This document shows, one piece after another, positions 33,301 to 36,300 of a stretch of DNA of 64,000 bases. The stretch's first letter is position 1. Each line of letters starts with the position of its first letter. Source of the DNA: an uncultured Coxiellaceae bacterium (GTDB taxonomy: Bacteria > Pseudomonadota > Gammaproteobacteria > DASZBR01); contig CAZLGL010000008.1 of assembly GCA_964559315.1 (NCBI GenBank), positions 31,065 to 95,064 of the forward strand. Reading direction: 5' to 3'. A program made the position numbers.

Positions 33301-36300
33301 GAAAATTTAATATCAGTAATTTGCTGGCAGTGATTAGCCTGCTCGGCATCATGGACACCAACATTGAACATATTTTAAATTATGTTGCTGAATTAAAAAC
33401 AGTCACGGGTCGTATGCAAGTGATTCCATTTCCGAATCATGCACGCGTTGTCATTGATTATGCACACACCCCCGATGCATTAGAAAAAACATTAAAAACC
33501 CTGCGCGAACATTGTCAGGGAAATATTTGGTGTGTATTTGGTTGCGGGGGTGATCGTGATAAAAACAAACGCCCCCAAATGGGAAGAATTGCAGAAAGAT
33601 TCGCTGATTTTGTTATTTTAACGGATGACAATCCGCGTACAGAAAATCCGTTAGAAATTATCGCAGAAATTAAAGCAGGTTTTGAAAATAAAAAAGCCGT
33701 TATCACAGAACATGATCGCCGCCGCGCGATTAAGCATGCGATTGACTGCGCGAAACCGAATGATGTGATTTTAATTGCAGGAAAAGGACATGAAACCTAT
33801 CAAGAGATTGGTCATGAACGTTTTCCATTTAGTGATGAGATGGAAGTAAAACTTTTATTAGTATAAGGGCGGCGCTTGCGACGCCCACTGTGAAATAAGG
33901 AACCTGAACGATGCTACTTTGGCTAACCCACTGGCTCTCCCATTATTATCGTTTTTTTAATGTATTTGATTATTTAACCTTACGAACCATTTTAGGTGCA
34001 CTCACCGCTCTCGCGATTTCATTATGCATTGGCCCCATGATGATTCGTCAATTATGTGAATATCAAATTGGTCAGGTGGTTAGAACTGACGGCCCCCAGT
34101 CTCATTTAAGTAAATCTGGCACTCCCACGATGGGCGGAACGTTAATTTTAATTGCCATCTCGTTGAGCACACTGTTGTGGGGCGATTTAGATAATAACTA
34201 TCTGTGGGTTACCTTACTTATTACATTAGGCTTTGGTGCCATTGGCTTTATTGATGATTACAAAAAATTGATCCTCAAAAACAGTAAGGGCTTAGCTGCT
34301 CGCTGGAAATATTTATTGCAATCTATCCTAGGATTTGGGGCAGCGATCTTTCTATATCACATGGGCACACAGCCTACTGACACACAGTTACTCATTCCCT
34401 TTCTTAAAAATATTTATATTGAACTGGGTGCATTTTATATTTTCTTTGTTTATTTGGTGATTGTCGGAAGCAGTAATGCGGTAAATTTAACCGATGGTTT
34501 AGATGGGTTAGCAATACTTCCGACAGTATTAGTCGGTGGCGCACTCGGCATTTTTGCATATCTCACAGGAAACATGACATTTGCGAAATATTTAGCCATT
34601 CCCTATGTCCCAGGCGCAGGAGAATTAACGGTATTTTGCGGAGCACTAGTAGGATCGGGCTTAGGCTTTTTGTGGTTTAACACTTACCCGGCGCAAGTAT
34701 TTATGGGCGATGTCGGTGCATTGGCATTAGGCGGAGCATTAGGTGTTATTGCAGTGATTGTGCGGCAAGAAATTGTTTTATTCTTAATGGGCGGTGTATT
34801 CGTATTAGAAACGGTTTCAGTAATTTTACAAGTCGCGTCATTTAAATTAACCGGAAAACGCATTTTTAAAATGGCGCCGATTCATCATCATTTCGAACTA
34901 AAAGGATGGCCAGAACCGCGTGTTATTGTACGTTTCTGGATTATTACGTTCATATTAGTATTGTGCGGGTTGGCAACACTGAAATTACGTTAATGTAAAA
35001 TTTAAGCAATAATACATATCTGAGAACCGCTCGCCTCGACATTTGAGTCCATTCCAACCCGATTTGCTGCTTCCGAATCTAAACTCTGTTCTGATGCAGG
35101 AAAAAACACGAACCAATCACCCGCTCGACTGATAGCATTATCACTGGCTTGAATAAAACGAACTGCACCCTCCCATTTTTCTCTTGCCACCTCAGCACTT
35201 AATTCTTCAACCCATTTCCGTGAAACTTCATCTCTGGGAAGATATTCTTCTTCTGTTCCAAGAGCAGGCAGAAGCATAAGAAGTTTCTTCGCTAAAAATT
35301 GTCGTCTTTCTAGCAATGCCGTTTTCCAGTGTTCATCAATCTTGTAACAATTCAGCTTTTCTAAAACAGGAAGCATATTCAGCATTCGCTCAAGCTCATC
35401 AGTATTGTTAAAATTCATCTCAAGGTGCTTTAGAGTGGACAAACTGCTTATAACGTTATGACTCATCTCTAAAAAATTACCCGTAATATGACTGCGGATA
35501 ATACTCATCTCCTGCAATCCTGAACATAGCTGAAGCAAATAGTGAAAAGTATCGAAAGGCATTCGTGAGTTTTTAAGCGCTAAACATGTCAATGGCACTG
35601 AAAAATCAGCATCAGGATGAGCATCACCAAGCATAATCTCGATGCAATCAAGCATGAGCTCTTTCAAATTTGGGCAACGCTTAAATAACCTAAAAAAATC
35701 TGCTTGAATGATCGTGCCACGACATAAAAAGAGTTTTGCTAAACACGCCAAATTTGCGGTAGAGTCCGTTGAAAGATTTAAAAATTGACCTAAATTTACA
35801 TCATTATAAGAATCAATGAGCAATTCTTTTAAATGGGGAAATTTTTGAGCAATACTGTGTAAATCGGGTCCATCTTTTTTCACAGTAACATACAATTTTA
35901 CAGTCTTTTCGCGGATAGAGGTTATCTTCCCATCCTCATCATACATCTCAGCGGTATCAAACACATGATGCTCCTATTAAAAAATGATGGCCAGACCCCG
36001 CGTTATTCTACGTTTGTGGATTATTAGGTTTATATTAGTATTATACGGGTTGGCCACATTAAAATTACGCAAAATTAGCTTATTTTTTTATCGCTATTTT
36101 CATAACCGAACAGCTGGGCTGGGGAAATTTATAGAATCATTCGCTATAGAACTAAGCAATTCATCCCACCCGGCATTATGAGACCCAAAAGCACTTTTTT
36201 GTTTTTTAATTTCTTGTATCAGATTTTTTTTAAATTCTTGCTCTACTTGCGGATCCTTACATTTAAGACTTGGCATAAGAAAAGTGTTTGCAAACAGCCT

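Follow-up and report, generated by a model that had tools for sequence, protein, structure and literature searches.

A gene for a leucine-rich repeat (LRR) protein lies immediately behind mraY in an uncultured Coxiellaceae bacterium, on the opposite strand, and it is bracketed by two diverged copies of the mraY 3' end. The region is part of a stretch of 64,000 nt (positions 31,065 to 95,064 of contig CAZLGL010000008.1, assembly GCA_964559315.1), referred to below as the window and numbered from its first letter. With moderate confidence, we interpret the LRR gene as a one-gene insertion into the mraY 3' end, which carried its own copy of the gene tail in the layout of the e14 element in the icd gene of Escherichia coli, and we consider two separate acquisitions of such a unit, in two lineages, to be likelier than one.

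The mraY-tail repeat

The junction consists of the following features.

33911–34993, plus strand: mraY, intact, 360 aa, identified as an open reading frame (ORF); last gene of a truncated division and cell wall (dcw) cluster
34900–34993, plus strand: repeat copy 1 (c1), the functional last ~31 codons of mraY and its stop codon (repeat search, BLAST)
35002–35964, minus strand: LRR gene, 320 aa, GTG start, C-terminal CIIA (Pfam LRR_At5g56370, E 8.8e-8)
35965–35980, minus strand: leader of the LRR gene, 16 nt, with GGAG six nt ahead of the GTG (sequence)
35981–36072, plus strand: repeat copy 2 (c2), pseudogene remnant of the mraY 3' end (repeat search, alignment, BLAST)

The direct repeat was detected as two blocks, 34915-34989 versus 35995-36069 (75 nt, 85% identity, spacing 1080) and 34900-34917 versus 35981-35998 (89% identity, spacing 1081); the offset of one base between the blocks corresponds to a 1-nt deletion in c2. 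When the last 100 nt of mraY were compared with the whole window by BLAST, c2 was the sole second copy (90 nt, 85.6%, E 3e-24). An earlier note on this DNA, made from the sequence alone, had described a repeat of the mraY terminus with about 85% identity, and this description holds with the coordinates adjusted as listed above. As a control, 92 mraY loci of other genomes were searched, and a second copy of the mraY tail longer than 26 nt was present in L090, L091 and L092 alone, which represent one organism in three samples.

The c1 copy encodes the conserved end of MraY, and its C-terminal 33 aa are identical to those of the relatives L081, L087 and L088. The c2 copy is a pseudogene fragment of mraY: a GGA codon has changed to TGA, the 1-nt deletion shifts the frame, the stop codon is lost (TAA to AAA), and four amino-acid replacements are found, all at positions that are invariant in eight relatives. 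The remnant without a stop codon reported in the earlier note is therefore confirmed, and so is the single minus-strand LRR gene exactly between the copies, since the interval holds exactly one ORF. The LRR gene converges on mraY, with 8 nt separating the two stop codons (no intrinsic terminator was found between the two genes).

Empty sites and a second carrier

Uncultured relatives with MraY identities of 95-80% were collected by protein search, and a cluster look-up added more at 90-95%. In four of them (L081, L087, L088 and L094, with 91-95% MraY identity) mraY is followed directly by a small gene and then by lgt; they have a single mraY end and neither the LRR gene nor the remnant nor the pentapeptide-repeat gene found further downstream in the window. 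Empty sites thus exist, as mraY adjoins the small gene in four lineages. Collinearity between L087 and the window extends over 26970-35002 and 37677-44726 (82% identity), and the slot between these two segments measures 2,674 bp in the window versus 31 bp in L087, with the same pattern in L081, L088 and L094. The comparison of synteny suggested in the earlier note consequently yielded the expected LRR-less relatives with one mraY terminus, but murD does not follow mraY in any relative examined. The sliding identity against L087 revealed no recombination tract ending at the mraY tail.

The LRR protein has one full-length homologue, P0253, which was located in GCA_035943935.1 (L090) and in the Logan assemblies of three runs (L091-L093; L093 is a 1,249-bp contig with the LRR gene alone). 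In L090 the LRR gene has mraY on one side and the positional counterpart of the small gene on the other, and the pentapeptide gene is missing. Between the start of the LRR gene and the small gene there is again a remnant of the mraY tail, which begins at the same mraY point as the remnant of the window (AAAAAA[T/G]G.TGG) and is more decayed (72% identity over 68 nt in BLAST, with indels). Direct repeats derived from the mraY 3' end thus bracket the insert both in the window and in L090. Direct reading of the sequences shows that, in the L090/L094 subclade, the small gene overlaps the original mraY end with its own 3' end.

Given these structures, an origin of the repeat as an assembly or binning artefact or as a chance similarity is barely credible. 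The window does come from a single assembly (a 109,914-bp NCBI contig), but the BLAST E value of the repeat is far from chance, repeat collapse or chimeric joining does not yield copies diverged by 15%, three relatives are collinear with the window on both flanks over 15 kb, and the equivalent arrangement of L090 was recovered in three independent assemblies (L090, L091 and L092).

The alternative named in the earlier note, a tandem duplication, appears highly improbable to us. In this case the mraY tail would have been copied in situ together with the downstream gene, and one gene copy would then have been replaced or have diverged. Such an event would account for direct repeats 1,080 nt apart with one gene between them, and the ratio of c1- to c2-specific changes, taken over all 90 nt, agrees with a duplicate formed in this genome. 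However, no relationship was found between the LRR and pentapeptide proteins (BLASTP E 0.58), and the relatives have no LRR gene beside mraY that could have been duplicated. The same duplication would have been needed twice to give the L090 structure, and the distal part of the repeat shows an excess of c1-specific synonymous changes (see below), which also argues against it.

Two observations concern the edges of the repeat region. The start of c2 has gained ATG-ATG, which opens a 65-aa ORF (35984-36181) running antisense into the 3' end of the pentapeptide gene; this ORF has no counterpart in the L090 remnant and is probably not a gene. P0124, known as a protein from a JGI contig of 1,982 bp, is a 377-aa MraY variant whose tail corresponds to an intact mraY 3' end read in the +1 frame. 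A loss of 35 nt between two GATGGC repeats would produce this pattern, and the ORF continues through ACGATGAAGCTT, a flank of the type seen in L094 and beside the L090 c2. Either a genuine deletion allele or a misassembly at the left border of the repeat region may underlie this variant.

Species tree and age of the remnants

A neighbour-joining tree was calculated from 1,714 aligned aa of RsmH, FtsL, FtsI, MurE and MraY and rooted with L082 and L083. Its topology is ((L090,L094),(window,(L087,L088))), with every node found in 100% of 500 bootstraps; over the region available for comparison, L081 hardly differs from L087. The LRR carriers are not sisters and each has an LRR-less sister, so the distribution calls for two gains or for one gain and two losses. 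The presence of the same unit, at the same left mraY boundary, in the non-sister L090 is what makes two acquisitions the likelier course.

At four-fold sites 50-54% of the positions differ between a carrier and its LRR-less sister, which corresponds to Jukes-Cantor distances of 0.83-0.96, or 0.42-0.48 substitutions/site per lineage. The changes in the repeat were polarised with the sister lineages in the 90-nt alignment, with the following result.

Window remnant: 8/90 remnant-specific changes, 0.095 substitutions/site, per-lineage neutral depth 0.42-0.44
L090 remnant: 20/90 remnant-specific changes, 0.26 substitutions/site, per-lineage neutral depth 0.48

As the decay of the remnants is below the per-lineage four-fold divergence, both would be younger than the split of their lineage from its LRR-less sister, provided that four-fold sites are approximately neutral. 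The earlier note had taken the 15% divergence of the copies as the sign of an old event. This does not follow, because the remnant-specific decay amounts to ~9%, below the neutral divergence from the nearest LRR-less relatives, and the rest is synonymous change in c1. A C to G change at a Thr codon in both remnants was considered as a mark of common descent and rejected, since 8 and 20 hits among 90 sites would coincide about 0.6 times by chance.

Identity of the two copies

The origin of the copies was examined in the distal 39 nt of the repeat. In both carriers, c2 equals the single copy of the sister at the sites where c1 departs from it. The private synonymous states of c1 number 4 in the window (absent from c2 and from L081, L087 and L088) and 5 in L090, while the private changes of c2 number 3 and 4, respectively. 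For these 16 sites (9 c1-specific versus 7 c2-specific) the binomial P is 0.0075 with p0 = 0.25 and 0.047 with p0 = 0.33; c1 has about a quarter as many neutral sites as c2, and a duplicate formed in situ would give c1 at most about a quarter to a third of the changes. Over a slightly longer segment, the distal 41 nt of the window c2 differ from the single copy in L087 at 3 positions. In L090, the last 32 nt of c2 with the flank TGAAGCTT show 3 differences from L094, compared with 7/29 for c1.

We read c2 and its flank as the original junction of the host, displaced and probably functional until fairly recently, because it is little decayed and its distal part matches the single mraY end of the sisters. 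Correspondingly, c1, at least in its distal half, would be a diverged allele that arrived with the LRR gene. The sequence downstream of the remnant was also compared with the post-mraY sequence of L081 and L087 as a sign of orthology; AGCTTA, common to L090, is the better anchor, and neither was used.

Several points weigh against insertion of a foreign tail in two separate events. The identity and the age of the copies are judged from at most 99 aligned nt per copy, with 8-29 variable sites, and the four-fold sites are near saturation and perhaps not neutral in an AT-rich genome. When single copies were subjected to change-point tests, significance was not reached (P 0.085-0.75), and the split behind the Fisher P of 0.005 for the contrast between the proximal and distal parts was set once the data had been inspected. 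A foreign c1 could be mimicked by parallel synonymous changes that arose in c1 following the insertion, for example through selection from the convergent gene. Two LRR-bearing lineages in about 15 billion proteins are few for a unit proposed to be mobile, and the metagenome scan and the plasmid, phage and IMG/VR collections yielded neither a donor nor a circular form nor a copy on a plasmid or phage. Finally, the LRR proteins of the two lineages are 46% identical, which long vertical descent fits equally well, dS being saturated for all genes.

Vertical descent is the basis of the main competing explanation, namely a single ancient insertion before the window, L087, L088, L090 and L094 lineages diverged, followed by two scarless losses through recombination between c1 and c2 (one in L087/L088/L081, the other in L094). 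The mraY end at a lost site would then have a c2-derived distal part, and gene conversion, recombinational exchange with LRR-less relatives or a constraint of some kind would have kept the remnants similar to mraY. The gene, its orientation and the left boundary of the repeat are the same in two lineages, as expected from a single event, and a 93-nt direct repeat readily allows the segment between its copies to be deleted without a scar (loss of e14 fuses icd with icdC likewise). The dN of the LRR genes (0.42) is lower than that of the neighbouring small gene (0.89) between the same two genomes. Both L090 copies also share CGA-TGA, TTGG and GCGGA as opposed to the copies of the window subclade, maybe a trace of conversion; L094, however, also has GCGGA and TGA, which leaves CGA and TTGG alone as L090-specific.

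A single insertion needs three events versus two. A neutral remnant older than the splits is expected to carry at least 0.42-0.48 substitutions/site, whereas 0.095 and 0.26 are observed, and the distal c2 that was resurrected in L094 and in L087/L088/L081 must have stayed coding-intact throughout. Conversion by c1 offers no explanation, for the distal c2 differs from c1 exactly where it matches the sister. On balance, we regard one ancient insertion as unlikely, although by far less so than a tandem duplication.

Proposed course of the insertion

According to the two-acquisition reading, a second version of the last ~93 nt of mraY would have arrived on the incoming DNA. Once recombined, this copy (c1) would complete the essential mraY gene, and the original tail of the host (c2) would be displaced about 1.08 kb downstream, lose its function and decay. 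The inserted unit would be minimal, consisting of the replacement tail, the LRR ORF and the 16-nt leader with a ribosome-binding site. It would have neither a promoter nor a recombinase gene, and the LRR gene would presumably be transcribed from the upstream minus-strand genes.

Two routes can be envisaged. In the first, RecA-type recombination would act through the 93-nt homology, either as a Campbell-type crossover of a circular copy or as short-arm recombination of transformed linear DNA. In the second, a recombinase encoded elsewhere would act near the left end of the repeat. Both routes predict the same product with the same fixed left boundary, and the data do not separate them. Of the earlier proposal of a footprint of site-specific insertion into a gene 3' end, the insertion (relative to the related genomes), the completion of mraY by the upstream copy and the displacement of the original end downstream are retained; site-specific recombination is not, there being no recombinase gene and recombination by homology giving the same product.

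The integrase noted as missing in the earlier reading is indeed absent: no integrase, transposase or other recombinase domain was detected in any ORF of at least 120 aa in the window, nor is there a recombinase gene in the L090 unit. The ends of the insert (35002/35980) have no terminal inverted repeats. The structure thus differs from an insertion sequence, which has terminal inverted repeats, a transposase and a duplication of 2-14 bp, as opposed to ~93 nt diverged by 15%. No inverted repeat was found within or between the repeat copies, so the attC site and intI gene of an integron are likewise not represented. The search for a sequence of the mraY tail in IMG/VR that might be an attP returned nothing, and no published use of mraY as an attachment site was found.

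The closest parallel is e14 in E. coli icd. There the end of the gene is supplied by the element, the displaced 163-bp tail persists as icdC, and icd and icdC become fused on excision (PMC6379469, PMC13626634). In e14 and phage 21, and more generally in islands that integrate at a gene 3' end and carry a replacement for it, as here, the target stays intact through the diverged 3'-end copy of the element, the original end is left as a pseudogene on the far side, and the copies differ mostly by synonymous changes. The differences lie in size and equipment, e14 being 15 kb long with its own integrase and excisionase, compared with a 963-nt ORF and a 16-nt leader here and no recombinase gene in 64 kb. 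Excision of e14 also gives a chimeric functional gene.

A second comparison is offered by the minimal mobile elements of Neisseria, described in a passage of PMC1797815 (citing Saunders and Snyder 2002) as alternative cassettes of one to three genes between conserved flanking genes, without mobility genes. The interval between mraY and lgt is similar, in that it holds different cargo between the same flanks in different lineages and no mobility genes. The LRR cassette differs in being bracketed by a 93-nt duplication of the flank, with a pseudogene tail left behind, which plain allelic exchange does not create. The cassettes of Neisseria are reportedly exchanged by homologous recombination after DNA uptake and are not known to be bounded by a duplication of a flanking gene.

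The LRR gene and its protein

The Pfam match of the LRR protein, to the F-box-associated plant-type family LRR_At5g56370, is above the gathering score (32.5 vs 27 bits). The AlphaFold model has a pLDDT of 66.7 and shows alternating strand-helix repeats in residues 1-160. The Foldseek matches of this moderately confident model are weak (E 4e-3 and above) and include TIR1, D3, COI1, SKP2/FBXL and other LRR proteins; the protein itself showed neither an F-box nor an ankyrin domain.

Among 1.84 billion cluster representatives P0253 was the one full-length homologue (46% identical). A word-based search returned the window's own protein alone, a metagenome scan with the LRR alignment found nothing, and homologues are absent from the plasmid, phage and IMG/VR collections searched. 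P0253 and the window protein share the N-terminus and both end in CIIA, a CaaX-type box (window 35002-35016, L090 10958-10972) that is invariant while the preceding ~25 residues vary. This invariance suggests that the protein may be lipidated by an enzyme of a eukaryotic host. Between the two carriers the LRR genes show a dN of 0.42 and a dS of 1.34, values that point to a gene which is constrained yet fast-evolving.

The GC content (0.386) and the GC at third codon positions (GC3, 0.327) of the gene are the same as in the flanks, and composition therefore gives no support for a recent foreign origin of the LRR gene. The contrast in composition that the earlier note had proposed to look for is found in the pentapeptide gene alone (GC3 0.25).

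The LRR protein is a predicted host-targeting effector. In Legionella, the CaaX box of the effector AnkB can be lipidated by host farnesyltransferase, as described in a passage of PMC5506055. The protein considered here has in common with the Legionella CaaX effectors a eukaryote-type interaction domain (here of the F-box-associated LRR type) and the C-terminal CaaX box; it differs in having no sequence relationship to the known Legionella effectors. No secretion-system genes were found in the window.

The mraY-lgt slot

Downstream of the remnant, the slot contains the following features.

36073–37652, minus strand: lineage-specific insertion with a pentapeptide-repeat gene (ORF 36100-37620, 506 aa; Pfam Pentapeptide, E 2e-29)
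37653–38060, minus strand: 135-aa hypothetical gene without a family match; the conserved neighbour that adjoins mraY in LRR-less relatives
38094–38126, no strand assigned: conserved intergenic element with the palindrome AACCTTAAGGTT, near-identical in L081 and L090
38161–39006, plus strand: lgt, the conserved right-hand flank of the slot (Pfam LGT, E 1e-84)

The pentapeptide gene is missing from L081, L087, L088, L090 and L094. The earlier note had listed it among the genes found downstream in place of murD; it is not original downstream sequence, as it occurs in the window lineage only. Its GC3 is the minimum of the neighbourhood, and its sole full-length homologue, P0134 (38%), lies at a different site in another genome, GCA_033763845.1, with giant genes and NACHT-WD40 genes around it. 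The pentapeptide gene is not flanked by a direct repeat (P 0.27). It is a separate, lineage-specific insertion between the remnant and the 135-aa gene, and its arrival would be later than that of the LRR unit and independent of it.

The 135-aa protein is 66-70% identical to the 138/129-aa proteins of L087, L081 and L088, and its gene is the positional counterpart of the 115/116-aa genes in L090 and L094; a metagenome scan with the small-gene alignment found nothing. The position of lgt is the same in L081, L087, L088, L090, L094 and the P0002 contig. On its 3' side, on the plus strand, lgt is followed by a zf-CHCC gene and two heptosyltransferase genes.

The element between the minus-strand cargo and lgt, CTAGGTTACACTACCAACCTTAAGGTTTTATTAA, includes AACCTTAAGGTT, a perfect palindrome, and shows a TTAA-N7-TTAA spacing. 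The window has a single copy of the element, and others lie at about 2270-2300 in L081, about 9455-9490 in L090 and, in recognisable form, about 11925-11950 in L082, where the element is retained although the gene 3' of it is not lgt. We take it to resemble the boxes of response regulators of the PmrA type. The element is a candidate for a shared promoter or operator of a transcription unit made of the 135-aa, pentapeptide and LRR genes. No sigma-70-like promoter was found on the minus strand in 35965-36100, and the leader leaves no room for one. As the remnant has no promoter-like site and the convergent genes have no terminator between them, we infer that the LRR gene may be read through from the promoter region of the small gene, in which the element at 38094-38126 lies. 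No Rfam family matched in 33000-39500, and the window contains no tRNA gene.

The slot between mraY and lgt is a hotspot with different minus-strand cargo in different lineages: LRR and pentapeptide genes in the window, the LRR gene in L090, none in L081, L087, L088 and L094. Other cargo includes a 665-aa cNMP-binding gene in the P0002 contig and a 272-aa gene.

The dcw cluster

The truncated dcw cluster of the window has the order mraZ-rsmH-ftsL-ftsI-murE-mraY, and the canonical arrangement (murF between murE and mraY, murD after mraY) is not found. The gene murF is located outside the cluster, upstream on the minus strand (26492-27997; TIGR01143, E 1e-128), and is followed by two receiver-domain ORFs in the region 25587-27997; in L082 a gene call joins a Mur ligase to a receiver domain. 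The in-cluster MurE (32685-33866) lacks the N-terminal ~100 residues, matching profile positions 100-488 of 493, likewise in L087, L088 and L082.

No dcw gene is found 3' of mraY in the window or in 9 related loci, and the dcw series ends with mraY in all relatives examined, the most distant of which have 82% MraY identity. In L082, L083 and L085 (82-83% MraY identity) mraY is followed by unrelated genes; in nearer relatives one or more variable minus-strand genes lie between mraY and lgt. The P0002 contig, for instance, has mraY, the cNMP-binding gene and a 120-aa gene, and then lgt-zfCHCC-GT9-GT9-fba-pyk. Because the relatives share the break of the cluster and the proximity of mraY to lgt, both predate the insertion. 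The earlier note had tied the dcw break to the insertion; the break at mraY is ancestral and unrelated to the LRR gene.

Genes are also inserted elsewhere in the cluster. L083 has a 353-aa orphan, a Fic-domain gene, a 71-aa orphan ORF and an HTH gene in the ftsI-murE gap (6145-8257), and L085 has a 502-aa glycosyltransferase-like gene between murE and mraY (1496-3004). Junctions of dcw genes appear to be general insertion points in this group.

The mraZ gene with its upstream sequence (29200-29900) shows 94-96% nucleotide identity to L087, compared with about 82% across the surrounding 15 kb, a sign either that mraZ and its promoter are very strongly constrained or that this segment is a tract of recent recombination.

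Other observations in the window

Gene content also varies in a second slot, bounded by the heptosyltransferase genes and fba (41064-42659). It contains a 531-aa orphan in the window, and proteins of 533 aa in L087, 514 aa in L088, 174 and 706 aa in L090 and at least 939 aa in L094; nothing is present there in the P0002 contig. Four large ORFs without a Pfam match (401, 509, 675 and 471 aa) are found among housekeeping genes at 6657-11547 and 19987-21402 and are candidates for further lineage-specific host-interaction genes. At 13360-13728 there is a gene for a cysteine-peptidase inhibitor of the chagasin family (I42), a family best known from protozoa.

Significance

If the reading of a tail-carrying insertion holds, the way in which prophages and islands bring their own gene tail would work also for a single promoterless gene without a recombinase, and at an essential cell-wall gene. 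It would provide a testable route for the gain and loss of host-interaction genes in the syntenic chromosomes of intracellular-type bacteria and would help to account for the differences in effector repertoire between close relatives. A further and more tentative idea, about which we remain doubtful, is that the ~1.08-kb unit is a self-targeting, recombinase-free cassette that moves between lineages and re-inserts at one nucleotide position of mraY by means of the mraY piece it carries. If true, single effector genes would spread, guided by homology or by a recombinase acting in trans, within an uncultured host-associated clade of gammaproteobacteria.

For the reading of related genomes, the fragmented dcw cluster of this clade should be taken as ancestral and not as damage from insertion, and short pseudogene tails beside convergent orphan genes may serve as usable markers for such insertions in metagenome-assembled genomes.

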